A DNA stretch of 64,000 nucleotides, from contig OX597817.1 of assembly GCA_951406725.2 (NCBI GenBank), positions 159,464,001 through 159,528,000 on the forward strand, in the 5' to 3' direction. Both the position numbers and the translations under genes were made by a program. The first letter of the stretch is position 1. Every line of letters starts with the position of its first letter. The notes under the pieces are model-generated. The model was not told the origin of the DNA, made no database searches, and saw only the letters and a list, made by a program, of their open reading frames with translations. The stretch comes from Octopus vulgaris. Lineage: Eukaryota. Shown piece after piece: positions 25,802 to 64,000 of this stretch.

Positions 25802-26191
25802 TACTCTTTTACTTGTTTCAGTCATTTGACTGCGGCCATGCTGCAGCACCGCCTTTTAGTCGAGCAAATCGACCCCGGGACTTATTCTTTGTAAGCCCAG
25901 TACTTATTCTATCGGTCTCTTTTTGCCGAACCGCTAAGTGACGGGGACGTAAACACACCAGCATCGGTTGTCAAGCAATGCTAGGGGGACAAACACAGAC
26001 ACACATACATATATATATATGTATATGTACATATATACGACAGGCTTCTTTCAGTTTCCGTCTACCAAATCCACTCACAAGGCATTGGTCGGCCTGGGGC
26101 TATAGCAGAAGACACTTGCCCAAGATGCCACGCAGAGGGACTGAGCCCGGAACCATGTGGTTGGTTAGCAAGCTACTTACCACACAGCCAC
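25802..26191 (-). mobile_element. tRNA-derived SINE, near full length
   Basis: Reverse complement of the 35047-35445 family, with A-box-like tggctgtgtggt, B-box-like gggctcagtccc, a central (TA/TG)n tract and the tail aagtaaaagagta. Confidence 0.85.
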
Positions 26192-26525
26192 ACATCATTT
26201 ACTTTACAACATTTCTCTATATTGTTGCATCATCTTAATAGGTAATTTATTGCATCATGTTATGACAACAGAATACAAGCAAGCAACAATATTTTTCTAA
26301 CAAGTTCTAAGTGCATAAAAAATAAGATGCAGTTTTATCTGATCTATACCAAAAGTAACTGCCAGGTATACTGTAAACTGTTGCTACACAATTATTAAGT
26401 AATCTACATTTTCATATTAACCAATAATAAATGTTATATAGAGACATTACAAAATCCACTCAATAGGTAAATGTATTACATCATAAAGAAAATTTAGTTT
26501 AAAGGGGTCGATTAACAATTAGTTT

Positions 26526-26889
26526 TGGCTATGTGGTAAGTAGCTTGCTTACCAACCACATGGTTCCAGGTTCAGTCCCACTGCATAGCACCTTGGGCAA
26601 GTGTTTTCTACTATAGCCTCAGGCCGACCAAAGTCTTCTGAGTGGATTTGATAGAGGGAAACTGAAAGAAGCCTGTCATATATATGTGTGTATGTTTGTG
26701 TTTGTCACCCCAACATCGCTTGACAACTGATGCTGGTGTTTACGTCCCCATAACTTAGTGGTTTGGCAAAAGAGACCGATAGAATAAGTACTAGGCTTAC
26801 AAAGAAAAAGTCCTGGGGTCAATTTGCTCGACTAAAGGTGGTGCTCCAGCATGGTCACAGTCAAATGACTGAAACAAGTAAAAGAGTAA
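26526..26889 (+). mobile_element. tRNA-derived SINE
   Basis: tggctatgtggtaagtagcttgcttaccaaccacatggttccaggttcagtccc ... gactgaaacaagtaaaagagtaa. Confidence 0.85.
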
Positions 26890-28417
26890 GGGAAAAATCT
26901 ATGAAAGACAGGAGATTTGACATCAAGCAATAGACCTGAAAACCACTAGACTTTGTAACAAAGACTACTAAGTAGATGGATTCTTGGAGAAAAATCATAT
27001 TACTTGGAAGGGACAGGGAAGATTGTATTGCTGCAGAAACAACATTGTAAAATTTAGCAGTTTTTTTTCTTCCCCTGTGACCTATTTTATCAAGCCATCC
27101 CTTTTGTGGATTTCCTTATCTTTTCACTCCTGTCATTGGTTACCATTCCATGATGATTTTTAACCAACAATTAATCTACTGTTCTAAATGATGTGGCTGC
27201 TCACGTCCCATTTTCTTTTATTTACAGCAATAAAAATACCAGTCAATATGCCAACCCAAAAAGATTTTCCTTTTGGGATAGACTGAGAGGTTTGACTTTG
27301 TAACTCTGCTGTACTTGTTCTGGCAATAATCTCTTCTCTTCATGTCTTTTTCTGTTATTGCTCACTTCGCACTTATTCTTTTATATAAGTTATTTTCTAC
27401 TAATTCTATTACTTCTTTTTTTCATTATTTGTATCTTCAGTCTGGAAGTCTTCCTTGCATTACACAATTCTCTTTCTCAGCATTTTCTGTCTCTTCTTGA
27501 CTATCTTGTTATCTATATAATGTCTTCAGTAAATCTGAGATAATGTACATTGTTTCTGCTGATATTTCTTGAATCTTCTATCCTGGTAGTATGAATATGA
27601 TTTCCAGTCATATTGTGAAATGCGTAGATGGTATGGTGTCTTCTGTATTGTCCAGTAATATTTGCACTATTCATGCAGATTATCCTCCACCAGGCAGAGG
27701 TATTTCCTTTTTTTTTTTGTTATGCATAGATGGGATCTTGAGAAATTAAACAAGAAATAGCTTACAAACTACAGAATTTTCTAAAGAACACCAAGAGAAA
27801 AATATGTTTTATGTAACACATTCTACCAGTATACGAAGTTTAAAAGTGTTTAGTTACAAAGAAATTATTTTTAAAATCTGCCGGTCAAAGTGAAAAGATC
27901 CCATAGATCTTCCAACAAATTCTGCACAATGATAGATTTTTAACCTCTGATAATCTTTGATCAGATGATTGACATTATGTACGTGGTTCTTAATGGTGAC
28001 ATCTAAAACATATATGTCAATAATTGTCCCTTGCCTACCAGCAGAAACCAGTGTCCCTTTACCAATTGACTCTTTAAATTTTGAAATTATTCCCCCTGCC
28101 TTTTTGCATGTTACTAACAAATATCATTAGCCTTATTTCCTTTTGTAAGCTTAGAAAAACATCAATAAATTAAGTATTTCATACACAACTCAGCATATTG
28201 CACTTGACTACTACTTTTGAGTTATTTCCCCACTTAGCTCTTTAATTTAATTATACAAATTTTCCTTATAGAAAAAAATTATGTACATTTCTTTGCTATG
28301 TAAAAACTACTAAAGAGCAGGTTCAACTAGTTAGGTTTCAGTTTGTTTGACCTCACCAGCCTTGTACTATGTCCATATTTTCTCTTGCCCACAAAGATCA
28401 GACAGCCCTTTCCTTAA

Positions 28418-28634
28418 CCCTTTAGCATTTAAACCAGCCATATCTGGCCAGAAGTATTCTGCCTATTTTATGTTCAAACTGGCCAGATCTTGTCTCTCAC
28501 ACCTACCCTACAATATCGTTTTAAAAATTAACAGCTACCTCATCATAATCTCATAACTACAAGATAATGCATGATTAGTTCAAAGCAATGTGGATAAAAA
28601 AGGATTTTGGCAGAATAATGCGAACACTAAAGGG
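28418..28634. mobile_element. Family A TTAA MITE
   Basis: TTAA|ccctttagcattt ... gaacactaaaggg|TTAA, 217 bp. Confidence 0.85.
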
Positions 28635-29056
28635 TTAAAGCATGAAGATAAACTTAAATACTTAATTTTGGTCAATTATTTCCCCTTCTCTTTGAGCATA
28701 CTAACACCTACCACTGGATTGCAAACAATTATCAATTCATAACAAAATTTCGGTAAATTAAGAATTTATTGCCTACAACATCTAGTAATGCACATGGATA
28801 TGATAAGTATATGTATACATCTTCTGTATATATGTCTGTATTTGCCTACACTCGTGAGCACACATGCAGATGTGTGTGCATCAATGTGCATATAGTACAT
28901 GCATCTGAATATTTCTTCTTGATGCCTAATTCCTTGAGAGTTACCTCCCCTCCCACAACTTGGAGGTCCCCAAACATGAACACCCAGGCTGACAAATGAC
29001 AAAGAATGCTACCTTATAACAACCATTAGTTTTGTATAGATTTGTATACTCCAATA

Positions 29057-29440
29057 GTGGAGGCGCAATGGCCCAGTGGTTAGGGCAGCGGACTCGCGGT
29101 CATAGGATTGCGGTTTCGATTCCCAGACCGAGCGTTTTGAGTGTTTATTGAGCGAAAACACCTAAAGCTTCATGAGGCTCTGGCAGGGGATGGTGGTGAT
29201 CCCTGCTGTACTCTTTCACCACAACTTTCTCTCACTCTTACTTCCTGTTTCTGTTGTACCTGTATTTCAAAGGGCCGGCCTTGTCACTCTCTGTGTCATG
29301 CTGAATATCCCCGAGAACTACGTTAAGGGTACACGTGTCTGTGGAGTGCTCAGCCACTTACACGTTAATTTCACGAGCAGGCTGTTCTGTTGATTCGGAT
29401 CAACCGGAACCCTCGTCGTCGTAACCGACGGAGTGCTTCC
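29057..29440 (+). mobile_element. Young tRNA-derived SINE (third family) with 11-bp TSD
   Basis: tRNA-like head with A box tggcccagtgg and B box ggtttcgattcc. TSD atactccaata at 29046-29056 and 29441-29451. Confidence 0.9.
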
Positions 29441-29805
29441 ATACTCCAATAATACTGGCTACATGATGAAGCCGAGTTTCAGTTGACTGCGTTAAATCAT
29501 ACACACAAGCATAGACATAAACGACCTAAACCCCATACTACACAAATTAGAACTGCGACTGGGGTAAGGTTACTGGACACACAGACATGTGACATAGTAG
29601 TGGATTGGTACAGTAGCTGGAGCCATAACAGTGAAGAGACAGGTCTGGAAAGATTAGAGGGAACAATAAATAATATCAGAAGTGAAGCTGTTAGGTATAT
29701 GAAACATAGAAAGAAGCTGAAGGTAAGCAATATTCTTTAGTGGCAAGATCAGACGTACTTATGATTGCAAAGCTGTGTGTCAACATGATCACGAGTAGCT
29801 CACTT

Positions 29806-30173
29806 GGAAGCACTCCCGTCGGTTACGACGACGAGGGTTCCGGTTGGAACAGCCTGCTCGTGAAATTAACGTGTAAGTGGCTGAGCACTCCACAGACACG
29901 TGTACCCTTAACGTAGTTCTCGGAGATATTCAGCGTGACACAGAGAGTGACATGGCCGGCCCTTTGAAATACAGGTACAACAGAAACAGGAAGTAAGAGT
30001 GAGAGAAAGTTGTGGTGAAAGAGTACAGCAGGGATCACCACCATCCCCTGCCGGAGCCTCGTGGAGCTTTAGGTGTTTTCGCTCAATAAACACAACGCCT
30101 GGTCTGGGAATCGAAACCGCGATCCTATGACCGTGAGTCCGTTGCCCTAACCTCTGGGCCATTGCGCCTCCAC
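29806..30173 (-). mobile_element. Young tRNA-derived SINE (same family as 29057-29440) with 12-bp TSD
   Basis: Reverse-complement copy. TSD agtagctcactt at 29794-29805 and 30174-30185. Confidence 0.9.
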
Positions 30174-30315
30174 AGTAGCTCACTTATCCTCACTAACACA
30201 AGAAAATGCTTGGAAATAGTATTATGAGAGGTTCCTGAAAGTGGAGAATGCATGGGAGAAAGGAACTACACCAAGGGACAATTCCTAATAAATGCATACT
30301 TGAAAACATGATTAA

Positions 30316-30493
30316 TCCTTTAACATTCAAACTGGCCATATCCAGCCCCTCACATTTAACCTACAATGTCATTCTAAAATTGAACAATCACATTATCAAA
30401 ATCTTGAAACCTTGAGATAATGCTTGATTAATTCAAAACAACATGAATAAATATAAGCATTACATTTGACAAGGTAATCTGAATGCTAAAGGG
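30316..30493. mobile_element. Family A MITE, internally deleted
   Basis: ttaa-tcctttaacattcaaactggccatatc ... aatctgaatgctaaaggg. Confidence 0.7.
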
Positions 30494-31364
30494 TTGAAGA
30501 TATGATGGCCTGACAAGCAGCTGGACATCAGAAATAATTACTGAGATGGTGAAAATATCTGAAGTAGAGGACAACTAAGTCACCTGCATAAGCAACAAGG
30601 ACGTACTAGCATAGCAGTGTCATCATTAACACATGACAAGTACAAAGGCACTGCTCTAGAAAGCAGTTACTACAGAATCATCAAGCTAATGGACCAAGGA
30701 AGGAACAGAAAAAGTTGTCTTGGTACTCATTCCCACCTGTTTATTATAGTTCTCTAGGGCATAAAAGAAGAGTAGAAAATCAGATAATGTAAGCTCATTT
30801 CCAAGTTATCATGGCTGAATTTGTCTCGGACACAGAGAAGAAATACCCAACATGGAAATAAAACTTAGGTTTGAGAGGTCCAATAGTAAACCTAAGAAAA
30901 ACATTTTAAGTTTGTGTCCAGTTGTACACCAATCTTTGGTAAAAGTGAGAGCTAGGAAGCGACCCAGTTCATCAACATTAACGTTGTTGGACATCACATT
31001 ACTATCACAAAACTCCACACATTTTCTCTGAAGCAAAAGTCTATCTTGTGGATGGATGTAGCAATATTAAATCCATGCTACTTATGACATAATGAGAGCA
31101 CGTGTGTGGATGTATTCGTAGATCCTGTTGAGTAAATTAATTTGAGAGGAAGAGAGACAGAATTCTATAGCCATGTCAGAAAGACATGCCCAATAATCAA
31201 GAAAACAGTAGGTAAGAATTCTGTTCATGCACACAAGTAAACCATCGGTGCACAGGAGTGAAATGACAGGATAAAGACATCCCTTCCTATGTGAGTAATC
31301 AACAACAATAGTTAGCAGTCGGAGCATCCACAAAGTTCTTGTAAAGTTTTAGAAGGTGCCAAAG

Positions 31365-31945
31365 ATGTTACTTGGGTAACCTTGTTAATAGTGAAGGTAG
31401 GTGTTCTGAAATCTCGGTAGCAACAGTAAGAATAGGATGGGAAAAGTTTAGGGAGTTATTAGCTGTTGACTGCAAAGGGATTCTCTCACCAAGACTATAT
31501 TGTCTGACATTTGTCTATGAAGTGATGTTGCATGGTAATAAGACACTTAATGTGGAAAGGAGACACAAAACCTGGAAATAAATGTAGCAAGCATGCTCCA
31601 CATGATACGTAAGTGTAGCAAGCATGCTCCACATGATACGTGAGTGTGCATGAACTATAGAGCACAAATGAAGTAAGAGAAAAAATGGTGTAAGAGGAAT
31701 CAAATAAGGTATACAAGAGAGATGGTTGCACTGGTATAGATATATGAGGCACACAGATGATGAAATCTGGGCAAATAGTACAGGTGGAAGGTATGAAGAC
31801 ATTGACAAGTGATTAAAGCTGATCTTAGGATGCAGAATTTCATGGAGATGGTAAGTGACCATGTTAAGTGGCAAGATATTGTGCTGGAGGGGAGACCCGT
31901 TTAACTCATATGGGCATAGAAAACCAGATATAAAGGTGATAATGT
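31365..31945 (+). mobile_element. Old, decayed RTE LINE 3' region containing a 31-bp tandem duplication (31583-31644)
   Basis: LGNLVNSEGRCSEISVATVRIGWEKFRELL resembles the RTE post-RT segment. Downstream remnants match the RRLRWYGH motif, and the region ends in a degenerate (tga)n-type tail. Confidence 0.6.
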
Positions 31946-32056
31946 TATTAAAGGTTCATGAAAATCTAAAGAAATATTCTTAAGCTAACAAAAAATGTCT
32001 ATTTTAATTAGCTTAATTAGAGAAAATAAAGTCATATAAGAATGTAAATAGAAAAA

Positions 32057-32950
32057 CATGGGCCATGACTGCTGAGGACATGCGTAAGCTTGCAATGAAT
32101 GAAGCCAGTATGCTCTGATGGGTGTGTAATGTCAGTGTGCATATTGGACAGATTGTAAGTACCTTGAGAGAAAAGCTGGACCTAAGAAGCATCAGATGTG
32201 GTGTGCAAGAGAGACGACTGCGCCGGTATGGCCATGTGGCGAGAATGGATGAGGATAGCTGTGTGAAAAAGTGCCACACCCTAGCGGTTGAGGGAACCTG
32301 TGGAAGAGGTAGACCCAGGAAGACCTGGGATGAGGTAGTGAAGCACAACCTTTGATCAGTAGGCCTCACCGAGGCAATGACTAGTGACCAAGACCTTTGG
32401 AAATATGCAGTGCCTGAGAAGACCTGGCAAGCCAAGTGAGACCATAACCCGTGGCCTATGCCAGGGGTGTAACCAGCCCACTTATACGTATCTTTCCTTC
32501 ATTGGGCACTAAACTCTGCTTGCGAAGACCTGTTGAGGCAATCGAAATCAAATCAAATTCACAAATTTGATGACTGGCACGTAAAAAGCACCATTCAAAC
32601 ATGATCATTACCAGCATTGCCTTACTGGCACTTGTGCCGGTGCATGTGAAAAACATTCGAGTGAGGTGACTGCCAGTGCCACTGGACTGGCTCCTGCACA
32701 GGTGGCACGTAAAAAACATCACTTGAGCATGGCTGTTGCCAGTACCGCCTGACTGGCCCTCGTGCCGGTGGCACATAAAAGCACCTACTACACTCTCGGA
32801 GTGGTTGGCGTTAGGAAGGGCATCCAGCTATAGAAACTTTGCCAGATCAGATTGGAGCCTGGTGCAGCCATCTGGTTCGCCAGTCCTCAGTCTAATCGTT
32901 CAACCCATGCTAGCATGGAAAGTGGACGTTAAACAATGATGATGATGATG
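32057..32950 (+). mobile_element. 5'-truncated RTE-clade LINE (ORF C-terminus, 3'UTR and (TGA)n tail)
   Basis: Peptide ...LREKLDLRSIRCGVQERRLRRYGHVARMDEDSCVKKC...GRGRPRKTWDEVV carries the RTE C-terminal signature. It ends ggacgttaaacaatgatgatgatgatg. Confidence 0.88.
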
Positions 32951-33052
32951 AAAAGAAAAAACCCAACTCTTCAAGCTGCAAATAATTGGAATATTCACTG
33001 AATTGATAAAATTGCTTAATTTACAGGTGAAAGAAAGTTAAATATTCAAAGT

Positions 33053-33630
33053 TAGTGGGTCTCAACCACTTTTTATCTATGGATCCTTTTGATTACTCTT
33101 TTACTCTGGTGGGCATCTCTGCCTCACCCCCACAAGCCATTTGATGTTTAAAAACAAGTTTAATAGATACTTCTTTCAAAATTCCTATTTTGTGTATCAC
33201 ACATTAACCCTTTAGTGTTCGCATTATTCTGCCAAAACTAATGCTTTTTTGTCCTCATTGTTTTGAACTAATCATGCATTATCTTGTAGTTATGAGATTT
33301 TGATGAGGTAGCTGTTAATTTTTAAAATGATATTGTAAGGTTGGTGTGAGAGACCAGATCTGGCCAGTTTGACCATAAAACAGGCAGAATACTTTTGGCC
33401 GGATAAGGCCGGTTTAAATGCTAAAGGGTTAACTTGCATAGACTGAACTATGTAAATGGTCAGAGAAAGAAACCTAGTTGTTTCTTGCAATAAATATTCA
33501 TATAAATAAAGCAAAATTTGTTCCTGAACCCATAAAATACTACTGTGAATCCAATTTACTATTTTGCTTATGTGGACCCACTAAATCTTATATACAAGGG
33601 GGTCACATGGAGCCAAGTTGAGAATCAGTG
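33053..33630. mobile_element. hAT-like non-autonomous element, interrupted by a family A MITE
   Basis: Degenerate TIRs tagtgggtctcaac ... gttgagaatcagtg resemble the CAGTGGTTCTCAA ends of hAT/Charlie elements. No clear 8-bp TSD. Confidence 0.55.
33208..33428. mobile_element. Family A TTAA MITE
   Basis: TTAA|ccctttagtgttc ... aaatgctaaaggg|TTAA, 221 bp, opposite orientation to and closely similar to 28418-28634. Confidence 0.87.
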
Positions 33631-34463
33631 TTCTAAGTGAAAGACTACCTAATTCATAAAAAGTGTTTAAAAAAAATGAATTTATATTTACCAGGTGTAT
33701 TAGTTATGTAACAATCCAAAGGAACCAGCCATTGGAGATGATTTTGCTTATGTGGACCCACTAAATCTTATATACAAGAGCGTCACATGGAGCCAAGTTG
33801 AGAATCAGTGTTCTAAGTGAAAGACTACCTAATTCATAAAAAGTGTTTAAGAAAAATGAATTTATATTTACCAGGTGTATTAGTTATGTAACAATCCAAA
33901 GGAACCAGCCATTGGAGATGATTTTGCTTATGTGGACCCACTAAATCCTATATACAAGAGCGTCACATGGAGCCAAGTTGAGAATCAGTGTTCTAAGTGA
34001 AAGACTACCTAATTCATAAAAAGTGTTTAAGAAAAATGAATTTATATTTACCAGGTGTATTAGTTATGTAACAATCCAAAGGAACCAGCCATTGGAGATG
34101 ATTTTGCTTATGTGGACCCACTAAATCTTATATACAAGAGCGTCACATGGAGCCAAGTTGAGAATCAGTGTTCTAAGTGAAAGACTACCTAATTCATAAA
34201 AAGTGTTTAAGAAAAATGAATTTATATTTACCAGGTGTATTAGTTATGTAACAATCCAAAGGAACCAGCCATTGGAGATGATTTTGCTTATGTGGACCCA
34301 CTAAATCTTATATACAAGAGCGTCACATGGAGCCAAGTTGAGAATCAGTGTTCTAAGTGAAAGACTACCTAATTCATAAAAAGTGTTTAAGAAAAATGAA
34401 TTTATATTTACCAGGTGTATTAGTTATGTAACAATCCAAAGGAACCAGCCATTGGAGATGATT
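33561..34463. repeat. Tandem array, 5 x 180 bp
   Basis: The unit start attttgcttatgtggaccca recurs at 33561, 33741, 33921, 34101 and 34281. Units differ by only a few bases. Confidence 0.97.
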
Positions 34464-35046
34464 GAGAAATATCCAACATGAGCTGTGGACCATTTTCAGC
34501 TAAAAGACAAAAGAGAGAGAAAGTGTAAAAAGAAAATTTAGAAATATTACAAACTGTGATGATAAAATTAGTAAAACATTAATGAAATAATCAAGTCAAA
34601 TTTGGGATAATTAGTTTAGGACTGAAAAAAAAAAAAACAACATTTTAATGAGTTTATGGGTATGCTGGTATTTTGAAAATCTCATGGAGTGATGACCATG
34701 CTCTGCATAGTCACATGTTACCCTTTGGCAAGGCATGGCACCCATTGAGCCACCCTGCCAGGGATATGGCAAAGTTATGGGACTGCAACATGAGAGATTG
34801 TAAAGAGACAGCAGAAGAGTTAAACTGAGCTCCCAATTCAAATTCATATTAATGAATTGAATAGGATGACAATATAGAATCACATATAGAAGCCATGCAA
34901 GCAATGCAGCCAGAAGATGAATTTGTGTAGTTTCCCTCGTCAGCTCCAATCCTGCAAAACTTTAATGAAATGTATGTAGCCTGTCCATAATCACATCAAT
35001 CTGCTTTCCATACTCAGTGTAAAAAAAAAAAAAAAGAACCACGCAA

Positions 35047-35445
35047 GAGTGGCTGTGTGGTAAGTAGCTTGCTAACCAACCACATGGTTCCGGGTTCAGT
35101 CCCACTGCGTGGCATCTTGGGCAAGTATCTTCTGCTATAGCCCTGGGCTGACCAATGCCTTGTGAGTGGATTTGGTAGACGGAAACTGAAAGAAGCCTGT
35201 TGTATATATGTACATATGTATATATATGTATGTGTGTGTGTGTTTGTGTGTGTGTTTGTCCCCCTAGCATTGCTTTACAACTGATGCTGGTGTGTTTACG
35301 TCCCTGTCACTTAGCGGTTCGGCAAAAGAGACCGATAGAATAAGTACTGGGCTTACAAAGAATAAGTCCCGGGGTCAATTTGCTCGACTAAAGGCGGTGC
35401 TCCAGCATGGCCGCAGTCAAATGACTGAAACAAGTAAAAGAGTAA
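35047..35445 (+). mobile_element. tRNA-derived SINE, full length
   Basis: gagtggctgtgtggtaagtagcttgctaaccaaccacatggttccgggttcagtccc ... (TA/TG)n ... gactgaaacaagtaaaagagtaa. Many homologous copies occur in the window. Confidence 0.88.
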
Positions 35446-35496
35446 TTACCAAATGTGCTGATATGTAGTCCATTGTATGTAATTCAACTATGTAAT

Positions 35497-36102
35497 ATGG
35501 TTTATTTCTATTTCTTTTATTCCAGTTTACATGAATATAAATTACATGAACTCCCTCATGCCACAACTATCTAGGAGAGCACTAACTCTGAATGAAATAG
35601 GACATAGAGTAGTAGAGACTCATTAGTGCTGCAGCAAGACAACATTCCTAGTGTTCCTGACATAAGAATCTATGCTGTAAAGTGGTTGGTGTAAAGCTTT
35701 GGGCTGCGTTCCCAAGCAACCCAACTCTCGGGCCGATGAACACCGCCGATCGCCGCCGGCTCCGAATGGGCCTGGCACCCGCTCTGGGCAGCCCCGATCG
35801 AGGGGACTCCGAACCTAGCCGGGCGAAACGATCGACCGTGTACGACCCTTGCGCCACAGCTCTCGACGACCGGCGCTGGGCTTCTCCCGGTTCACTCGCC
35901 GTTACATGGTTTATTTCTATTTCTTTTATTCCACAGTTTACATGAATATAAATTACATGAACTCCCTCATGCCACAACTATCTAGGAGAGCACTAACTCT
36001 GAATGAAATAGGACATAGAGTAGTAGAGACTCATTAGTGCTGCAGCAAGACAACATTCCTAGTGTTCCTGACATAAGAATCTATGCTGTAAAGTGGTTGG
36101 TG
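35497..36102. repeat. ~197-bp direct duplication (35497-35691 and 35906-36102) flanking a 214-bp GC-rich insert
   Basis: atggtttatttctatttc ... gctgtaaagtggttggtg occurs twice, and the first copy lacks 2 bp. Confidence 0.95.
35696..35905 (-). pseudogene. 28S: 28S rRNA fragment (5' / D1 region)
   Basis: Minus strand reads GTAACGGCGAGTGAACCGGGAGAAGCCCAGCGCC ... GAGTTGGGTTGCTTGGGAACGCAGCCCAAAGC. Both ends match the conserved eukaryotic LSU blocks flanking D1 (AGTAACGGCGAGTGAA..GAGCCCAGCGCCG and GAGTCGGGTTGCTTGGGAATGCAGCCCAAAGC). Confidence 0.92.
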
Positions 36103-36339
36103 ATATAGAGAGCATCCATCAGGTTGAATGCATATTTGAGCGCATGTATGTAACAGGTGGTTTTGTACTGAGCCCAACAAGTGGTAAGATACTGAGACAA
36201 CCCACCCAACACATATCAGCAGGGAAAAGGGATTGAGCAATAGACATTTTCTTTATTTCTTTGGTTTATTTTGATACAAACATAAGTAACTAACTTTACA
36301 GGATAAATAACAAATTGTTTATTAATTAGTAATTTGAGC

Positions 36340-36556
36340 GTAGCTGTTGTCAGTACCGCCTAACTGGCCCTCATGCCGGTGGCACATAAAAGCACCCACT
36401 ACACTCTCAGAGTGGTTGGCATTAGAAAGGGCATCCAGCTGTAGAAACTCTGCCAGATCAAGATTGGAGCCTGGTGCAGACATCTGGTTTGCCAGTCCTC
36501 AGTCAAACCGTCCAACCCATGCTAACATGGAAAGCGGACGTTAAATGATGATGATG
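36340..36556 (+). mobile_element. RTE 3'UTR fragment
   Basis: Matches 32730-32950 and ends gcggacgttaaatgatgatgatg. Confidence 0.85.
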
Positions 36557-36737
36557 AAAGAAAGCCAGGAAAATAAATTAGAATGTAACTCATGTTTAGA
36601 TAAAGTTATATTAGAGATCCCTCAGTAATACTATGCACATTGAGAGTAATCAAAGATATCCAGAACACTAATCTTCATAAAATAGAAATATAGTTCTGAC
36701 CAGAATGTGGGCCCATTAAAAATGGTCCTGCTGCTTA

Positions 36738-36947
36738 ACTCTTGTATTGAGATTACTGTCAAATTTAATGCTTACTTATGCATATTGCTTCGAATTAATC
36801 ATGCATTATCAAGATTTTGATGATGTAGTATTGTTTCTCTTCAGAATGACATCATAGAGTAGATGTGAGAGGCTGGATCTGGCCAGTTTGAATACAAAAC
36901 AAGTGAAATGTTTTGTGTCAGATATGGCCAGTTCAAATGCTAAAGGT
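36738..36947. mobile_element. Family A MITE (degenerate)
   Basis: ttaa-ctcttgtattgagattactgtcaaa ... cagttcaaatgctaaagg-ttaa. Confidence 0.7.
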
Positions 36948-37034
36948 TAAACACTTTCAGCATATAGTGATAAAGAAGCTGATACTTAAAAACTATGAAA
37001 TGCATGGAAATAAAGACAAAATATACATGCCCGT

Positions 37035-37068
<34 letters not shown>

Positions 37069-43630: not shown

Positions 43631-43984
43631 CCCCCCCCCCTAAAAAAAAAGGTGTTGGATTTCACTAAAAATATATGTGTGTGTGTGTGTGTATATATAA
43701 CATTTTCAATTTTACACAAAAAAATTACATAGTCGCTTTCCTCGCGGATTTACAGAGAAATGAATTAATTACTATTTTACAGAATAAAATTAATGAATTA
43801 ATTATATAAATTAAATAATTCTTGAAAATTAATTAATATTAATAATATTTTTTGAACAAAGTAAATAATTTATAAAACTTGGTTAATAATTTTTTTTACA
43901 CAAACGCGAACGTATATAATTTGTGAAACTTTTTTTTTTTTACAGACGTATATAATTTGGTAAACTTAATGAATTAATTTCTTC

Positions 43985-45093: not shown

Positions 45094-45474
45094 GGGGGCA
45101 AAGAGAGATCAGAAAAAAAATTAGAACCTCACACCACCACCACCGGGTAATTCAAAGTTGTTCATTTTGATATGGCTCAAGAGGCATTATGGACTTTTAA
45201 ATGGAGATTGAGAAAAATTGTTTCAATTAGAAAAGCAACATTTCTAGAAAATAGTAAATTGAAGTGTGAACACAGCACCTTACAGAGTATAAGTATATGA
45301 CATTTATTTTTAAAATTTAACTTAATTTGTTTTATATTCTAAATAATTTGCAATTTCAAAAAATATATTAATTTTGCGTTTTTTAATTTGATAAAGTCTA
45401 CGGAATAATTTTGCGCGTTTTTTTATAAATTCTACGGAAAGAATTTAGTGCGAAAAATTTATACATTTATACAC

Positions 45475-45894: not shown

Positions 45895-46249
45895 GAAGAA
45901 ATTAATTCATTAAGTTTACCAAATTATATACGTCTGTAAAAAAAAAAAAGTTTCACAAATTATATACGTTCGCGTTTGTGTAAAAAAAATTATTAACCAA
46001 GTTTTATAAATTATTTACTTTGTTCAAAAAATATTATTAATATTAATTAATTTTCAAGAATTATTTAATTTATATAATTAATTCATTAATTTTATTCTGT
46101 AAAATAGTAATTAATTCATTTCTCTGTAAATCCGCGAGGAAAGCGACTATGTAATTTTTTTGTGTAAAATTGAAAATGTTATATATACACACACACACAC
46201 ACATATATTTTTAGTGAAATCCAACACCTTTTTTTTTAGGGGGGGGGGT

Positions 46250-52828: not shown

Positions 52829-52864
<36 letters not shown>

Positions 52865-53342
52865 ACGGGCATGTATATTTTGTCTTTATTTCCATGCATT
52901 TCATAGTTTTTAAGTATCAGCTTCTTTATCACTATATGCTGAAAGTGTTTAACCTTTAGCATTTGAACTGGCCATATCTGACACAAAACATTTCACTTGT
53001 TTTGTATTCAAACTGGCCAGATCCAGCCTCTCACATCTACTCTATGATGTCATTCTGAAGAGAAACAATACTACATCATCAAAATCTTGATAATGCATGA
53101 TTAATTCGAAGCAATATGCATAAGTAAGCATTAAATTTGACAGTAATCTCAATACAAGAGTTAAGCAGCAGGACCATTTTTAATGGGCCCACATTCTGGT
53201 CAGAACTATATTTCTATTTTATGAAGATTAGTGTTCTGGATATCTTTGATTACTCTCAATGTGCATAGTATTACTGAGGGATCTCTAATATAACTTTATC
53301 TAAACATGAGTTACATTCTAATTTATTTTCCTGGCTTTCTTT

Positions 53343-53559
53343 CATCATCATCATTTAACGTCCGCTTTCCATGTTAGCATGGGTTGGACGGTTTGACTGA
53401 GGACTGGCAAACCAGATGTCTGCACCAGGCTCCAATCTTGATCTGGCAGAGTTTCTACAGCTGGATGCCCTTTCTAATGCCAACCACTCTGAGAGTGTAG
53501 TGGGTGCTTTTATGTGCCACCGGCATGAGGGCCAGTTAGGCGGTACTGACAACAGCTAC
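53343..53559 (-). mobile_element. RTE 3'UTR fragment (mirror of 36340-36556)
   Basis: catcatcatcatttaacgtccgc... reverse complement of the left-arm copy. Confidence 0.85.
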
Positions 53560-53796
53560 GCTCAAATTACTAATTAATAAACAATTTGTTATTTATCCTG
53601 TAAAGTTAGTTACTTATGTTTGTATCAAAATAAACCAAAGAAATAAAGAAAATGTCTATTGCTCAATCCCTTTTCCCTGCTGATATGTGTTGGGTGGGTT
53701 GTCTCAGTATCTTACCACTTGTTGGGCTCAGTACAAAACCACCTGTTACATACATGCGCTCAAATATGCATTCAACCTGATGGATGCTCTCTATAT

Positions 53797-54405
53797 CACC
53801 AACCACTTTACAGCATAGATTCTTATGTCAGGAACACTAGGAATGTTGTCTTGCTGCAGCACTAATGAGTCTCTACTACTCTATGTCCTATTTCATTCAG
53901 AGTTAGTGCTCTCCTAGATAGTTGTGGCATGAGGGAGTTCATGTAATTTATATTCATGTAAACTGTGGAATAAAAGAAATAGAAATAAACCATGTAACGG
54001 CGAGTGAACCGGGGAGAAGCCCAGCGCCGGTCGTCGAGAGCTGTGGCGCAAGGGTCGTACACGGTCGATCGTTTCGCCCGGCTAGGTTCGGAGTCCCCTC
54101 GATCGGGGCTGCCCAGAGCGGGTGCCAGGCCCATTCGGAGCCGGCGGCGATCGGCGGTGTTCATCGGCCCGAGAGTTGGGTTGCTTGGGAACGCAGCCCA
54201 AAGCTTTACACCAACCACTTTACAGCATAGATTCTTATGTCAGGAACACTAGGAATGTTGTCTTGCTGCAGCACTAATGAGTCTCTACTACTCTATGTCC
54301 TATTTCATTCAGAGTTAGTGCTCTCCTAGATAGTTGTGGCATGAGGGAGTTCATGTAATTTATATTCATGTAAACTGTGGAATAAAAGAAATAGAAATAA
54401 ACCAT
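53797..54405. repeat. 197-bp direct duplication (53797-53993 and 54209-54405) flanking the 28S insert
   Basis: caccaaccactttacagc ... gaaataaaccat occurs twice, and both copies are 197 bp. Confidence 0.95.
53994..54204 (+). pseudogene. 28S: 28S rRNA fragment (D1 region), mirror copy
   Basis: gtaacggcgagtgaaccggggagaagcccagcgcc ... gagttgggttgcttgggaacgcagcccaaagc. Confidence 0.92.
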
Positions 54406-54456
54406 ATTACATAGTTGAATTACATACAATGGACTACATATCAGCACATTTGGTAA

Positions 54457-54857
54457 TTACTCTTTTACTTGTTTCAGTCATTTGACTGCGGCCATGCTGG
54501 AGCACCGCCTTTAGTCGAGCAAATTGACCCCGGGACTTATTCTTTGTAAGCCCAGTACTTATTCTATCGGTCTCTTTTGCCGAACCGCTAAGTGACAGGG
54601 ACGTAAACACACCAGCATCAGTTGTAAAGCAATGCTAGGGGGACAAACACAGACACACAAACACACACACACATACATATATATACATATGTACATATAT
54701 ACAACAGGCTTCTTTCAGTTTCCGTCTACCAAATCCACTCACAAGGCATTGGTCAGCCCAGGGCTATAGCAGAAGATACTTGCCCAAGATGCCACGCAGT
54801 GGGACTGAACCCGGAACCATGTGGTTGGTTAGCAAGCTACTTACCACACAGCCACTC
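54457..54857 (-). mobile_element. tRNA-derived SINE (mirror of 35047-35445)
   Basis: Reverse complement of the left-arm copy. Confidence 0.87.
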
Positions 54858-55438
54858 TTGCGTGGTTCTTTTTTTTTTTTTTTTACACTGAGTATGGAAA
54901 GCAGATTGATGTGATTATGGACAGGCTACATACATTTCATTAAAGTTTTGCAGGATTGGAGCTGACGAGGGAAACTACACAAATTCATCTTCTGGCTGCA
55001 TTGCTTGCATGGCTTCTATATGTGATTCTATATTGTCATCCTATTCAATTCATTAATATGAATTTGAATTGGGAGCTCAGTTTAACTCTTCTGCTGTCTC
55101 TTTACAATCTCTCATGTTGCAGTCCCATAACTTTGCCATATCCCTGGCAGGGTGGCTCAATGGGTGCCATGCCTTGCCAAAGGGTAACATGTGACTATGC
55201 AGAGCACGATCATCACTCCATGAGATTTTCAAAATACCAGCATACCCATAAACTCATTAAAATGTTTTTTTTTTTTTTCAGTCCTAAACTAATTATCCCA
55301 AATTTGACTTGATTATTTCATTAATGTTTTACTAATTTTATCATCACAGTTTGTAATATTTCTAAATTTTCTTTTTACACTTTCTCTCTCTTTTGTCTTT
55401 TAGCTGAAAATGGTCCACAGCTCATGTTGGATATTTCT

Positions 55439-56342
55439 CAATCATCTCCAATGGCTGGTTCCTTTGGATTGTTACATAACTAATACACCTGGTAAATATA
55501 AATTCATTTTTCTTAAACACTTTTTATGAATTAGGTAGTCTTTCACTTAGAACACTGATTCTCAACTTGGCTCCATGTGACGCTCTTGTATATAAGATTT
55601 AGTGGGTCCACATAAGCAAAATCATCTCCAATGGCTGGTTCCTTTGGATTGTTACATAACTAATACACCTGGTAAATATAAATTCATTTTTCTTAAACAC
55701 TTTTTATGAATTAGGTAGTCTTTCACTTAGAACACTGATTCTCAACTTGGCTCCATGTGACGCTCTTGTATATAAGATTTAGTGGGTCCACATAAGCAAA
55801 ATCATCTCCAATGGCTGGTTCCTTTGGATTGTTACATAACTAATACACCTGGTAAATATAAATTCATTTTTCTTAAACACTTTTTATGAATTAGGTAGTC
55901 TTTCACTTAGAACACTGATTCTCAACTTGGCTCCATGTGACGCTCTTGTATATAGGATTTAGTGGGTCCACATAAGCAAAATCATCTCCAATGGCTGGTT
56001 CCTTTGGATTGTTACATAACTAATACACCTGGTAAATATAAATTCATTTTTCTTAAACACTTTTTATGAATTAGGTAGTCTTTCACTTAGAACACTGATT
56101 CTCAACTTGGCTCCATGTGACGCTCTTGTATATAAGATTTAGTGGGTCCACATAAGCAAAATCATCTCCAATGGCTGGTTCCTTTGGATTGTTACATAAC
56201 TAATACACCTGGTAAATATAAATTCATTTTTCTTAAACACTTTTTATGAATTAGGTAGTCTTTCACTTAGAACACTGATTCTCAACTTGGCTCCATGTGA
56301 CCCCCTTGTATATAAGATTTAGTGGGTCCACATAAGCAAAAT
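55439..56342. repeat. Tandem array, 5 x 180 bp (mirror)
   Basis: atcatctccaatggctggtt recurs at 55441, 55621, 55801, 55981 and 56161. Confidence 0.97.
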
Positions 56343-56474
56343 AGTAAATTGGATTCACAGTAGTATTTTATGGGTTCAGGAACAAATTTTGCTTTATTTA
56401 TATGAATATTTATTGCAAGAAACAACTAGGTTTCTTTCTCTGACCATTTACATAGTTCAGTCTATGCAAGTTAA

Positions 56475-56696
56475 CCCTTTAGCATTTAAACCGGCCTTAT
56501 CCGGCCAAAAAGTATTCTGCCTGTTTTATGGTCAAACTGGCCAGATCTGGTCTCTCACACCAACCTTACAATATCATTTTAAAAATTAACAGCTACCTCA
56601 TCAAAATCTCATAACTACAAGATAATGCATGATTAGTTCAAAACAATGAGGACAAAAAAGCATTAGTTTTGGCAGAATAATGCGAACACTAAAGGG
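56475..56696. mobile_element. Family A TTAA MITE (mirror of 33208-33428)
   Basis: TTAA|ccctttagc ... cactaaaggg|TTAA. Confidence 0.85.
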
Positions 56697-56952
56697 TTAA
56701 TGTGTGATACACAAAATAGGAATTTTGAAAGAAGTATCTATTAAACTTGTTTTTAAACATCAAATGGCTTGTGGGGGTGAGGCAGAGATGCCCACCAGAG
56801 TAAAAGAGTAATCAAAAGGATCCATAGATAAAAAGTGGTTGAGACCCACTAACTTTGAATATTTAACTTTCTTTCACCTGTAAATTAAGCAATTTTATCA
56901 ATTCAGTGAATATTCCAATTATTTGCAGCTTGAAGAGTTGGGTTTTTCTTTT

Positions 56953-57849
56953 CATCATCATCATCATCATTGTTTAACGTCCACTTTCCATGCTAGCATG
57001 GGTTGAACGATTAGACTGAGGACTGGCGAACCAGATGGCTGCACCAGGCTCCAATCTGATCTGGCAAAGTTTCTATAGCTGGATGCCCTTCCTAACGCCA
57101 ACCACTCCGAGAGTGTAGTAGGTGCTTTTATGTGCCACCGGCACGAGGGCCAGTCAGGCGGTACTGGCAACAGCCATGCTCAAGTGATGTTTTTTACGTG
57201 CCACCTGTGCAGGAGCCAGTCCAGTGGCACTGGCAGTCACCTCACTCAAATGTTTTTCACATGCACCGGCACAAGTGCCAGTAAGGCAATGCTGGTAATG
57301 ATCATGTTTGAATGGTGCTTTTTACGTGCCAGTCATCAAATTTGTGAATTTGATTTGATTTCGATTGCCTCAACAGGTCTTCGCAAGCAGAGTTTAGTGC
57401 CCAATGAAGGAAAGATACGTATAAGTGGGCTGGTTACACCCCTGGCATAGGCCACGGGTTATGGTCTCACTTGGCTTGCCAGGTCTTCTCAGGCACTGCA
57501 TATTTCCAAAGGTCTTGGTCACTAGTCATTGCCTCGGTGAGGCCTACTGATCAAAGGTTGTGCTTCACCACCTCATCCCAGGTCTTCCTGGGTCTACCTC
57601 TTCCACAGGTTCCCTCAACCGCTAGGGTGTGGCACTTTTTCACACAGCTATCCTCATCCATTCTCGCCACATGGCCATACCGGCGCAGTCGTCTCTCTTG
57701 CACACCACATCTGATGCTTCTTAGGTCCAGCTTTTCTCTCAAGGTACTTACAATCTGTCCAATATGCACACTGACATTACACACCCATCAGAGCATACTG
57801 GCTTCATTCATTGCAAGCTTACGCATGTCCTCAGCAGTCATGGCCCATG
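56953..57849 (-). mobile_element. 5'-truncated RTE LINE (mirror of 32057-32950)
   Basis: ORF 57551..57784 encodes the same RRLRRYGHVARM...GRGRPRKTW peptide. Confidence 0.88.
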
Positions 57850-59732
57850 TTTTTCTATTTACATTCTTATATGACTTTATTTTCTCTAATTAAGCTAATT
57901 AAAATAGACATTTTTTGTTAGCTTAAGAATATTTCTTTAGATTTTCATGAACCTTTAATAACATTATCACCTTTATATCTGGTTTTCTATGCCCATATGA
58001 GTTAAACGGGTCTCCCCTCCAGCACAATATCTTGCCACTTAACATGGTCACTTACCATCTCCATGAAATTCTGCATCCTAAGATCAGCTTTAATCACTTG
58101 TCAATGTCTTCATACCTTCCACCTGTACTATTTGCCCAGATTTCATCATCTGTGTGCCTCATATATCTATACCAGTGCAACCATCTCTCTTGTATACCTT
58201 ATTTGATTCCTCTTACACCATTTTTTCTCTTACTTCATTTGTGCTCTATAGTTCATGCACACTCACGTATCATGTGGAGCATGCTTGCTACACTTACGTA
58301 TCATGTGGAGCATGCTTGCTACATTTATTTCCAGGTTTTGTGTCTCCTTTCCACATTAAGTGTCTTATTACCATGCAACATCACTTCATAGACAAATGTC
58401 AGACAATATAGTCTTGGTGAGAGAATCCCTTTGCAGTCAACAGCTAATAACTCCCTAAACTTTTCCCATCCTATTCTTACTGTTGCTACCGAGATTTCAG
58501 AACACCTACCTTCACTATTAACAAGGTTACCCAAGTAACATCTTTGGCACCTTCTAAAACTTTACAAGAACTTTGTGGATGCTCCGACTGCTAACTATTG
58601 TTGTTGATTACTCACATAGGAAGGGATGTCTTTATCCTGTCATTTCACTCCTGTGCACCGATGGTTTACTTGTGTGCATGAACAGAATTCTTACCTACTG
58701 TTTTCTTGATTATTGGGCATGTCTTTCTGACATGGCTATAGAATTCTGTCTCTCTTCCTCTCAAATTAATTTACTCAACAGGATCTACGAATACATCCAC
58801 ACACGTGCTCTCATTATGTCATAAGTAGCATGGATTTAATATTGCTACATCCATCCACAAGATAGACTTTTGCTTCAGAGAAAATGTGTGGAGTTTTGTG
58901 ATAGTAATGTGATGTCCAACAACGTTAATGTTGATGAACTGGGTCGCTTCCTAGCTCTCACTTTTACCAAAGATTGGTGTACAACTGGACACAAACTTAA
59001 AATGTTTTTCTTAGGTTTACTATTGGACCTCTCAAACCTAAGTTTTATTTCCATGTTGGGTATTTCTTCTCTGTGTCCGAGACAAATTCAGCCATGATAA
59101 CTTGGAAATGAGCTTACATTATCTGATTTTCTACTCTTCTTTTATGCCCTAGAGAACTATAATAAACAGGTGGGAATGAGTACCAAGACAACTTTTTCTG
59201 TTCCTTCCTTGGTCCATTAGCTTGATGATTCTGTAGTAACTGCTTTCTAGAGCAGTGCCTTTGTACTTGTCATGTGTTAATGATGACACTGCTATGCTAG
59301 TACGTCCTTGTTGCTTATGCAGGTGACTTAGTTGTCCTCTACTTCAGATATTTTCACCATCTCAGTAATTATTTCTGATGTCCAGCTGCTTGTCAGGCCA
59401 TCATATCTTCAACCCTTTAGCATTCAGATTACCTTGTCAAATGTAATGCTTATATTTATTCATGTTGTTTTGAATTAATCAAGCATTATCTCAAGGTTTC
59501 AAGATTTTGATAATGTGATTGTTCAATTTTAGAATGACATTGTAGGTTAAATGTGAGGGGCTGGATATGGCCAGTTTGAATGTTAAAGGATTAATCATGT
59601 TTTCAAGTATGCATTTATTAGGAATTGTCCCTTGGTGTAGTTCCTTTCTCCCATGCATTCTCCACTTTCAGGAACCTCTCATAATACTATTTCCAAGCAT
59701 TTTCTTGTGTTAGTGAGGATAAGTGAGCTACT

Positions 59733-60100
59733 GTGGAGGCGCAATGGCCCAGAGGTTAGGGCAACGGACTCACGGTCATAGGATCGCGGTTTCGATTCCC
59801 AGACCAGGCGTTGTGTTTATTGAGCGAAAACACCTAAAGCTCCACGAGGCTCCGGCAGGGGATGGTGGTGATCCCTGCTGTACTCTTTCACCACAACTTT
59901 CTCTCACTCTTACTTCCTGTTTCTGTTGTACCTGTATTTCAAAGGGCCGGCCATGTCACTCTCTGTGTCACGCTGAATATCTCCGAGAACTACGTTAAGG
60001 GTACACGTGTCTGTGGAGTGCTCAGCCACTTACACGTTAATTTCACGAGCAGGCTGTTCCAACCGGAACCCTCGTCGTCGTAACCGACGGGAGTGCTTCC
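59733..60100 (+). mobile_element. Young tRNA-derived SINE (mirror of 29806-30173)
   Basis: TSD aagtgagctact on both sides. Confidence 0.9.
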
Positions 60101-60465
60101 AAGTGAGCTACTCGTGATCATGTTGACACACAGCTTTGCAATCATAAGTACGTCTGATCTTGCCACTAAAGAATATTGCTTACCTTCAGCTTCTTTCTAT
60201 GTTTCATATACCTAACAGCTTCACTTCTGATATTATTTATTGTTCCCTCTAATCTTTCCAGACCTGTCTCTTCACTGTTATGGCTCCAGCTACTGTACCA
60301 ATCCACTACTATGTCACATGTCTGTGTGTCCAGTAACCTTACCCCAGTCGCAGTTCTAATTTGTGTAGTATGGGGTTTAGGTCGTTTATGTCTATGCTTG
60401 TGTGTATGATTTAACGCAGTCAACTGAAACTCGGCTTCATCATGTAGCCAGTATTATTGGAGTAT

Positions 60466-60849
60466 GGAAGCACTCCGTCGGTTACGACGACGAGGGTTCC
60501 GGTTGATCCGAATCAACAGAACAGCCTGCTCGTGAAATTAACGTGTAAGTGGCTGAGCACTCCACAGACACGTGTACCCTTAACGTAGTTCTCGGGGGTA
60601 TTCAGCATGACACAGAGAGTGACAAGGCCGGCCCTTTGAAATACAGGTACAACAGAAACAGGAAGTAAGAGTGAGAGAAAGTTGTGGTGAAAGAGTACAG
60701 CAGGGATCACCACCATCCCCTGCCAGAGCCTCATGAAGCTTTAGGTGTTTTCGCTCAATAAACACTCAAAACGCTCGGTCTGGGAATCGAAACCGCAATC
60801 CTATGACCGCGAGTCCGCTGCCCTAACCACTGGGCCATTGCGCCTCCAC
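60466..60849 (-). mobile_element. Young tRNA-derived SINE (mirror of 29057-29440)
   Basis: TSD tattggagtat on both sides. Confidence 0.9.
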
Positions 60850-61271
60850 TATTGGAGTATACAAATCTATACAAAACTAATGGTTGTTATAAGGTAGCAT
60901 TCTTTGTCATTTGTCAGCCTGGGTGTTCATGTTTGGGGACCTCCAAGTTGTGGGAGGGGAGGTAACTCTCAAGGAATTAGGCATCAAGAAGAAATATTCA
61001 GATGCATGTACTATATGCACATTGATGCACACACATCTGCATGTGTGCTCACGAGTGTAGGCAAATACAGACATATATACAGAAGATGTATACATATACT
61101 TATCATATCCATGTGCATTACTAGATGTTGTAGGCAATAAATTCTTAATTTACCGAAATTTTGTTATGAATTGATAATTGTTTGCAATCCAGTGGTAGGT
61201 GTTAGTATGCTCAAAGAGAAGGGGAAATAATTGACCAAAATTAAGTATTTAAGTTTATCTTCATGCTTTAA

Positions 61272-61488
61272 CCCTTTAGTGTTCGCATTATTCTGCCAAA
61301 ATCCTTTTTTATCCACATTGCTTTGAACTAATCATGCATTATCTTGTAGTTATGAGATTATGATGAGGTAGCTGTTAATTTTTAAAACGATATTGTAGGG
61401 TAGGTGTGAGAGACAAGATCTGGCCAGTTTGAACATAAAATAGGCAGAATACTTCTGGCCAGATATGGCTGGTTTAAATGCTAAAGGG
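61272..61488. mobile_element. Family A TTAA MITE (mirror of 28418-28634)
   Basis: TTAA|ccctttagtg ... gctaaaggg|TTAA. Confidence 0.85.
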
Positions 61489-63016
61489 TTAAGGAAAGGG
61501 CTGTCTGATCTTTGTGGGCAAGAGAAAATATGGACATAGTACAAGGCTGGTGAGGTCAAACAAACTGAAACCTAACTAGTTGAACCTGCTCTTTAGTAGT
61601 TTTTACATAGCAAAGAAATGTACATAATTTTTTTCTATAAGGAAAATTTGTATAATTAAATTAAAGAGCTAAGTGGGGAAATAACTCAAAAGTAGTCAAG
61701 TGCAATATGCTGAGTTGTGTATGAAATACTTAATTTATTGATGTTTTTCTAAGCTTACAAAAGGAAATAAGGCTAATGATATTTGTTAGTAACATGCAAA
61801 AAGGCAGGGGGAATAATTTCAAAATTTAAAGAGTCAATTGGTAAAGGGACACTGGTTTCTGCTGGTAGGCAAGGGACAATTATTGACATATATGTTTTAG
61901 ATGTCACCATTAAGAACCACGTACATAATGTCAATCATCTGATCAAAGATTATCAGAGGTTAAAAATCTATCATTGTGCAGAATTTGTTGGAAGATCTAT
62001 GGGATCTTTTCACTTTGACCGGCAGATTTTAAAAATAATTTCTTTGTAACTAAACACTTTTAAACTTCGTATACTGGTAGAATGTGTTACATAAAACATA
62101 TTTTTCTCTTGGTGTTCTTTAGAAAATTCTGTAGTTTGTAAGCTATTTCTTGTTTAATTTCTCAAGATCCCATCTATGCATAACAAAAAAAAAAAAAAGG
62201 AAATACCTCTGCCTGGTGGAGGATAATCTGCATGAATAGTGCAAATATTACTGGACAATACAGAAGACACCATACCATCTACGCATTTCACAATATGACT
62301 GGAAATCATATTCATACTACCAGGATAGAAGATTCAAGAAATATCAGCAGAAACAATGTACATTATCTCAGATTTACTGAAGACATTATATAGATAACAA
62401 GATAGTCAAGAAGAGACAGAAAATGCTGAGAAAGAGAATTGTGTAATGCAAGGAAGACTTCCAGACTGAAGATACAAATAATGAAAAAAAGAAGTAATAG
62501 AATTAGTAGAAAATAACTTATATAAAAGAATAAGTGCGAAGTGAGCAATAACAGAAAAAGACATGAAGAGAAGAGATTATTGCCAGAACAAGTACAGCAG
62601 AGTTACAAAGTCAAACCTCTCAGTCTATCCCAAAAGGAAAATCTTTTTGGGTTGGCATATTGACTGGTATTTTTATTGCTGTAAATAAAAGAAAATGGGA
62701 CGTGAGCAGCCACATCATTTAGAACAGTAGATTAATTGTTGGTTAAAAATCATCATGGAATGGTAACCAATGACAGGAGTGAAAAGATAAGGAAATCCAC
62801 AAAAGGGATGGCTTGATAAAATAGGTCACAGGGGAAGAAAAAAAACTGCTAAATTTTACAATGTTGTTTCTGCAGCAATACAATCTTCCCTGTCCCTTCC
62901 AAGTAATATGATTTTTCTCCAAGAATCCATCTACTTAGTAGTCTTTGTTACAAAGTCTAGTGGTTTTCAGGTCTATTGCTTGATGTCAAATCTCCTGTCT
63001 TTCATAGATTTTTCCC

Positions 63017-63380
63017 TTACTCTTTTACTTGTTTCAGTCATTTGACTGTGACCATGCTGGAGCACCACCTTTAGTCGAGCAAATTGACCCCAGGACTTTT
63101 TCTTTGTAAGCCTAGTACTTATTCTATCGGTCTCTTTTGCCAAACCACTAAGTTATGGGGACGTAAACACCAGCATCAGTTGTCAAGCGATGTTGGGGTG
63201 ACAAACACAAACATACACACATATATATGACAGGCTTCTTTCAGTTTCCCTCTATCAAATCCACTCAGAAGACTTTGGTCGGCCTGAGGCTATAGTAGAA
63301 AACACTTGCCCAAGGTGCTATGCAGTGGGACTGAACCTGGAACCATGTGGTTGGTAAGCAAGCTACTTACCACATAGCCA
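63017..63380 (-). mobile_element. tRNA-derived SINE (mirror of 26526-26889)
   Basis: Reverse complement of the left-arm copy. Confidence 0.85.
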
Positions 63381-63714
63381 AAACTAATTGTTAATCGACC
63401 CCTTTAAACTAAATTTTCTTTATGATGTAATACATTTACCTATTGAGTGGATTTTGTAATGTCTCTATATAACATTTATTATTGGTTAATATGAAAATGT
63501 AGATTACTTAATAATTGTGTAGCAACAGTTTACAGTATACCTGGCAGTTACTTTTGGTATAGATCAGATAAAACTGCATCTTATTTTTTATGCACTTAGA
63601 ACTTGTTAGAAAAATATTGTTGCTTGCTTGTATTCTGTTGTCATAACATGATGCAATAAATTACCTATTAAGATGATGCAACAATATAGAGAAATGTTGT
63701 AAAGTAAATGATGT

Positions 63715-64000
63715 GTGGCTGTGTGGTAAGTAGCTTGCTAACCAACCACATGGTTCCGGGCTCAGTCCCTCTGCGTGGCATCTTGGGCAAGTGTCTTCTG
63801 CTATAGCCCCAGGCCGACCAATGCCTTGTGAGTGGATTTGGTAGACGGAAACTGAAAGAAGCCTGTCGTATATATGTACATATACATATATATATATGTA
63901 TGTGTGTCTGTGTTTGTCCCCCTAGCATTGCTTGACAACCGATGCTGGTGTGTTTACGTCCCCGTCACTTAGCGGTTCGGCAAAAAGAGACCGATAGAAT
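63715..64000 (+). mobile_element. tRNA-derived SINE (mirror of 25802-26191), cut by the window end
   Basis: gtggctgtgtggtaagtagcttgctaaccaacc... to the window end. Confidence 0.85.

Follow-up and report, generated by a model that had tools for sequence, protein, structure and literature searches.

The window analysed here, a 64,000-nucleotide stretch of Octopus vulgaris DNA at positions 159464001-159528000 of C4 in a 2.8-Gb assembly, holds part of a zinc-finger gene and part of a large palindrome turning on a transposon, the arms of which were measured after adding 40 kb of neighbouring sequence on the left and 60 kb on the right. The features are given below in window coordinates, with the analysis on which each rests in brackets.

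1..1299, minus strand: single-exon C2H2 zinc-finger gene (934 aa), 5' portion of the coding exon, outside the palindrome (ORF, protein matches)
15277..44785, plus strand: left arm, comprising 28.2 kb of flank and the left terminal inverted repeat, with no coding exon found (sequence comparison, ORF/Pfam scan)
33561..34463, no strand: tandem array of five 180-bp units, a passive passenger in the arm, with its mirror at 55440-56342 (repeat scan)
39001..43500, no strand: stretch rich in CpG (observed/expected 0.75-1.2; in other parts mostly 0.1-0.4), with the element at its edge (composition)
43519..46385, no strand: non-autonomous, foldback-shaped, Merlin-derived transposon of ~2.9 kb, one of more than 80 copies (genome search)
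43519..44785, plus strand: left terminal inverted repeat, with deletions (comparison with other copies)
44786..45093, no strand: spacer of the element, 308 bp, of which 44873-45042 matches DNA adjoining the starts of Merlin transposase ORFs at 87-96% (sequence comparison)
45094..46385, minus strand: intact terminal inverted repeat on the right side, 1,292 bp, starting with 5'-GG (comparison with other copies)
45663..45901, no strand: fragment of a common interspersed repeat, presumably SINE-like, captured within the terminal repeat, with its mirror near 43978-44216 (genome matches)
45094..64000, minus strand: right arm, which beyond the window runs to 74642 and stops at a 100-N gap (self-BLAST, neighbouring stretches)

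Self-BLAST of the window aligns 25906-44788 with 64000-45091 in inverted orientation over 18,940 columns at 99.39% identity, with 28 mismatches and 40 gap openings, and thereby reproduces the palindrome with a 308-bp spacer (44786-45093) described in an earlier note on this DNA. The left limit at 25906 is only a reflection of the window edge. That note had guessed that the true arms are longer, and comparison past 64 kb bears this out, with arms at 15277-44785 and 45094-74642 that are 99.33% identical over 29,610 columns in a palindrome spanning 59 kb overall in the assembly. The last base of the right arm, 74642, directly abuts the 100-N assembly gap (74643-74742), and the assembly contains no outer junction of this arm to unique DNA; at the mirror position of the gap edge on the left, the sequence runs on as ordinary DNA past 15277. 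The palindrome in the assembly is not a product of chance: in 34 control stretches of 10 kb each, the longest inverted match at 98% identity or more was 220 bp. The assembly holds only two copies of the inner flank, both in the arms.

The 934-aa C2H2 protein matches an Argonauta hians protein at 90% and has matches in many molluscs, covering ~90% of the query. Its exon, the only ZNF coding exon found, sits 14 kb beyond the outer end of the arm. We saw no C2H2 motif in the arm itself, and a Pfam scan of 112 ORFs (non-repeat ORFs of at least 55 residues over most of 1400-43480, a scope in which shorter exons could be missed) yielded no match over the cut-off there, the sole exception in the scan being a LINE ORF beyond the gap; Rfam returned 0 matches on 1-34900. 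The CpG-rich stretch is likely to be a promoter region, to judge from its composition, and the arms probably hold the promoter and first intron of the C2H2 gene. The proposal that the palindrome is a route of ZNF amplification accordingly receives no support at this locus, with the exon outside the arm and the arm free of detected C2H2 motifs.

The foldback element and its relatives

The earlier description of the centre was right about the 308-bp spacer and overlooked that the inner 2.9 kb is a dispersed transposon, the left end of which is short of 23 bp and 15 bp present at the right end. A transposon at the centre accounts for both the spacer and the point of turning, whether the palindrome is real or a product of assembly. 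The left and right terminal repeats are identical over 43551-44785. A genome search with 43600-45200 gave, among the matches listed, at least 30 near-full-query matches at 93-100% on many chromosomes, while the exact 27-base element end occurs 107 times in the genome and a looser 20-base end 190 times. At 67 loci the element is ~2.9 kb long, with 1,292-bp terminal repeats flanking the same spacer. Target duplications are present in 52 of 57 two-ended copies (9 bp in 33, 8 bp in 18 and 10 bp, in a microsatellite, in one) and in 13 of the 16 two-ended copies among 19 further loci; these counts refer to copies elsewhere, as the window's own copy has mirrored flanks. The resulting 86 loci include two same-insertion pairs (L039/L040 and L058/L059).

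The window copy is distinguished by its left end, which lacks 23 bp (10 bp of element and 13 bp of flank) between 3-bp microhomologies, and by the loss of a 15-bp GC tract from the left terminal repeat. Neither deletion was seen at any of 108 other scored ends, where the GC tract is kept in some length. Compared with 42 full-length copies, for which the median is 4, the window copy has zero isolated substitutions against 4 of them, and for this reason we place it among the youngest of its family. CpG content is higher near insertion sites than far from them (3.06% versus 2.18%, n=48, p=6e-6), and C2H2 zinc-finger ORFs adjoin the element at 11 of 60 sites.

With respect to the superfamily, a MULE/Mutator foldback origin was suspected first, given the 9-bp duplications and long repeats, and was rejected: none of 18 MULE stretches, from 66 matches, shares the element end. 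A classical Foldback (FB) element was likewise rejected, as the terminal repeat is not built of tandem modules; self-BLAST detected no internal repeats in it, and only one 34-bp x 2 unit was recorded.

A search of the genome for Merlin transposases produced 150 matches, one of which, L174 on C11, coincides with an element end. This locus (L174/L193) has one element end, in which ~400 bp match the terminal repeat at 84%. It also has a 298-aa open frame matching PF12762 (DDE_Tnp_IS1595; E 1.4e-19), the start of which adjoins 78 bp of sequence 96% identical to the spacer. The same transposase is found at two more places (L179/L182 and L183/L185) with spacer sequence at 87-90%. A second element end was not found at L174/L193 within the 10 kb examined, nor was a complete two-ended autonomous Merlin with these ends among 14 related transposase loci and L193. 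The L174-type protein is a candidate transposase for the element, and the element itself is probably a Merlin deletion derivative, one end of which has become a long repeat.

Merlin elements, which PMC8101967 reports as abundant in the genome of Octopus bimaculoides, have GG ends, 8-9-bp duplications and terminal repeats 24-462 bp long. The present family shares with them terminal inverted repeats starting with 5'-GG and target duplications of 8-9 bp, with the transposase in the partner locus only. Its terminal repeat of 1,292 bp exceeds the described range, and we therefore file the element as a Merlin-derived variant. The Octopus vulgaris repeat annotation reported in PMC13282606 includes two Merlin families with recent activity, which account for 11 insertions and 28,998 bp. 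Among the papers listed on cephalopod foldback DNA transposons, octopus Mutator terminal inverted repeats and octopus Merlin, none dealt with the present family.

Differences between the arms

Counted outside the element, over 28.2 kb of flank, the arms differ by 43 substitutions (26 transitions, 4 of them at CpG, and 17 transversions) and by about 54-55 indels, of which 33 are homopolymer changes; indels of 23, 15 and 6 bp also distinguish the arms. The differences listed earlier (32337, 32658, 34696/34698, 38443, 39498-39500, 39589-39598 and 40463) are all present. Isolated substitutions number 32 (0.11%) and are clumped, with p=0.014, 0.046 and 0.092 for bins of 2, 3 and 4 kb, respectively; the 7.6-kb block 21713-29307 contains none of the 32 yet 10 of 54 indels (p=0.011, for a block chosen post hoc). 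The homopolymer differences are polarised: inside 37,300 the right arm is the shorter in 12 of 12 cases, and outside it the left arm is the shorter in 17 of 21, one-sided blocks for which a split this good arose in 0 of 2000 permutations, and a pattern to be expected of consensus errors.

The pair L039/L040 on C9 offers a yardstick. Here the contig stops in the second arm of the element, and the 12 kb leading up to the break reappear beyond the gap; the 9,982 bp aligned (2 kb lie outside the comparison) show 2 mismatches and 16 gaps. We interpret this repeat as an overlap left unmerged. At 55 in 28.2 kb, arm indels are as frequent as in this pair (p=0.59), whereas arm substitutions are above its level (p=0.005). 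Hence most of the arm indels look like consensus error, and the substitutions, together with the indels of 23, 15 and 6 bp, resemble allelic differences or true divergence. The excess of substitutions further implies that an assembly fold-back would need two haplotypes. Thus, the earlier assessment of the differences as real variation stands for the substitutions and the three longer indels and fails for 33 of the 54 indels, which are homopolymer changes, one-sided in blocks.

Origin of the palindrome

We propose, with a probability of roughly 0.68, that the palindrome is an assembly fold-back in the identical repeats of the element, the returning arm of which probably belongs to the other haplotype. 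Under this proposal, the flank would be present a single time on the chromosome, and the assembler would have passed out of the element by way of its second, identical arm and back into the same flank. Reads would degrade or stop in the second arm, an overlap in the 1.3-kb repeat would join a reverse read of the same flank, and the path would retrace 28 kb of flank, probably with reads of the other haplotype, whereas the true far flank would be lost into the gap.

Several lines of evidence point in this direction. The right arm is a near-identical copy that ends at a contig break, as false duplications in assemblies do. Past the gap, no match to arm sequence of at least 500 bp was detected in the first 49 kb, and none longer than 150 bp at more than 95% was among the 60 longest matches over 109 kb; since a real distal junction should assemble from its unique side, this counts for an artefact. 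Moreover, mirrored flanks were seen at none of the 86 other loci, where the flanks compared, 0.3-3.5 kb or longer and 8.5 kb at five loci, contain no near-identical inverted match reaching far past the element; in 73 two-ended copies, the 300-bp flanks agree in mirror at 54-120 positions. A search for the flank pattern in metagenome contigs found nothing and is uninformative.

The element as such appears to be troublesome for assembly. The contig ends inside an arm in 3 of 86 copies (L039, L055 and L196). Of six gaps, three fall within 210 kb of element and three within 952 kb of flanks plus controls, an enrichment that is suggestive only (p=0.077 for 86 loci; p=0.087 for the first 67). A variant count that omits two neighbouring gaps gives p=0.02 and is not relied on. 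In PMC7229812, nanopore reads are reported to drop in quality and to miss bases once they enter the second arm of an inverted duplicate, an effect that would apply here if the assembly drew on such reads, and foldback reads, according to PMC12870357, may tangle assembly graphs. The gap at the arm end and the polarised homopolymers favour the mis-joining of haplotypes, which the earlier note had offered as its main alternative, over its lead reading of a recent or homogenised inverted duplication, for which the 0 of 86 mirrored loci also lower the odds.

An actual inverted duplication primed by the element, with its second junction hidden in the gap and arms that subsequently diverged under patchy conversion, is on this evidence less likely. 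Such a duplication could have started from a break beyond the element or from opposite-arm exchange between sister chromatids, with the terminal repeats folding back and the flank copied in reverse. The centre, a 1.3-kb inverted repeat with a short spacer, is a substrate for homology-mediated fold-back, and inverted Alu pairs do likewise in tumours, as described in PMC3834830. The far-side junction expected of a normal insertion has 0 matches in the assembly, an absence that a real palindrome predicts and that speaks against an artefact; the left-end deletions with microhomology, unique to this copy, could be a repair scar, and poor consensus is to be expected in a real palindrome too. The 43 substitutions and the 23-, 15- and 6-bp indels also agree with divergence of real arms, for which the youth of the element leaves room after insertion (P=0.20), so that dating by element divergence does not separate the two readings. 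Nevertheless, the second junction would have to sit exactly in the gap, with no arm sequence found in the 109 kb past it and not even a short flank mirror at the other loci; in addition, the homopolymer differences are polarised, and indels remain where substitutions vanish, which conversion alone would not achieve.

That a palindrome preceded the element, which later landed at or replaced its centre, is highly improbable: the arms do differ by 0.11% isolated substitutions and the element by none against 4 of 42 copies, but an insertion should leave a direct 8-9-bp target duplication, whereas here the flanks mirror each other and the left end is deleted, and a chance landing on the exact centre of 59 kb is not to be expected.

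If the palindrome is an assembly fold-back, as we favour, this chromosome as assembled contains 29 kb of false duplication and has lost a flank, and the transposon family concerned is one at which the assembly tends to break. If it is real, a transposon would have primed an inverted duplication in the germline of a cephalopod, a case that would be dated and resolved to the nucleotide. On this less likely view, a fresh, still-spreading Merlin foldback would have primed the heritable inverted copying of a promoter region of 28 kb, and the family, with its preference for CpG-rich DNA and its C2H2 zinc-finger ORFs alongside, would be a set of dispersed primers of palindromes through which octopus zinc-finger clusters could be rearranged even now. 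Solid and new under either reading is a very young Merlin-derived foldback family that prefers CpG-rich sites, has terminal repeats of the unusual length of 1.3 kb and comes with a candidate transposase.

Comparison with known systems

The locus resembles long-read false duplications and fold-back errors in its near-identical copy ending at a contig break and in its indel-rich differences, and further parallels are the tangling of graphs by foldback reads (PMC12870357) and the loss of bases in second arms (PMC7229812). In what these two papers describe, the subject is reads, in contrast to the transposon-centred contig considered here, and a foldback read formed at random would not reverse at a spacer that is part of the genome.

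Fold-back capping, breakage-fusion-bridge cycles (BFB) and ODIRA likewise generate large arms with a central asymmetry at a pre-existing inverted repeat (PMC3834830; for ODIRA, PMC7229812). Such events are somatic or arise under selection and involve a second junction or additional cycles, which are not seen here.

With the Merlin superfamily (IS1016/IS1595-related), the element has in common the GG ends and 8-9-bp duplications given in PMC8101967, and a PF12762 locus shares its end and spacer; it departs from Merlin in its 1,292-bp repeats and in being an element without transposase for which no complete two-ended partner was found. Very long terminal repeats around a short loop are also characteristic of Tm1/Phantom (Mutator) and Galileo (P), and Tm1 further shares the 9-bp target duplications (PMC3169594). 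Unlike these, the present element is linked to Merlin rather than to MULE and has repeats without tandem modules, in keeping with the account in PMC3169594 that the foldback shape arose with different transposases.

Zinc-finger frames near copies of the foldback element

A multi-finger C2H2 open reading frame was found within the 10-kb stretch at 11 of the 60 loci carrying the Merlin-derived foldback element (L044-L049, L053, L061, L087, L088 and L092) and at none of the 34 control loci (p=0.006), the controls not being matched by chromosome and several element loci being clustered on chromosomes C28-C30. The copy in L092 is located between two inverted C2H2 frames (10-1537 and 7135-8664) that are 80% identical to each other, a pair that is far older than the element copy it encloses.

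Duplicated segments and neighboring frames

At C9:55057750-55081781 (L112, L039, L040), a 12-kb direct repeat spans an assembly gap that lies inside the second arm of an element, and is likely to be a false duplication. On C16, L058 and L059, 265 kb apart, carry one insertion, with an identical target copy, in two segments that are 97-99% identical and represent a segmental or haplotype duplication. Two other frames lie around the window:
L018:8564-10000 and L017:1-1383 (+), a long open frame about 30 kb to the left, which resembles an insulin receptor substrate exon
L120:7457-9235 (-), past the gap at the end of the right arm, a LINE endonuclease/reverse-transcriptase frame

Transposase, derivative forms and terminal-repeat motif

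A candidate source of the element's activity is the following frame:
L174:1432-2325 (-), an open 298-aa Merlin transposase frame adjoining one element end

The genome also contains asymmetric derivatives of 1.2-1.6 kb, which combine a single long arm with a short end and retain target duplications, together with mini-elements of about 82 bp (L043, L048, L091, L195, L207, L208, L210, L211; L093, L212). The terminal repeat itself includes a GC-rich palindromic motif (window 43587-43602), which presumably resembles an NRF1/Ewg site.
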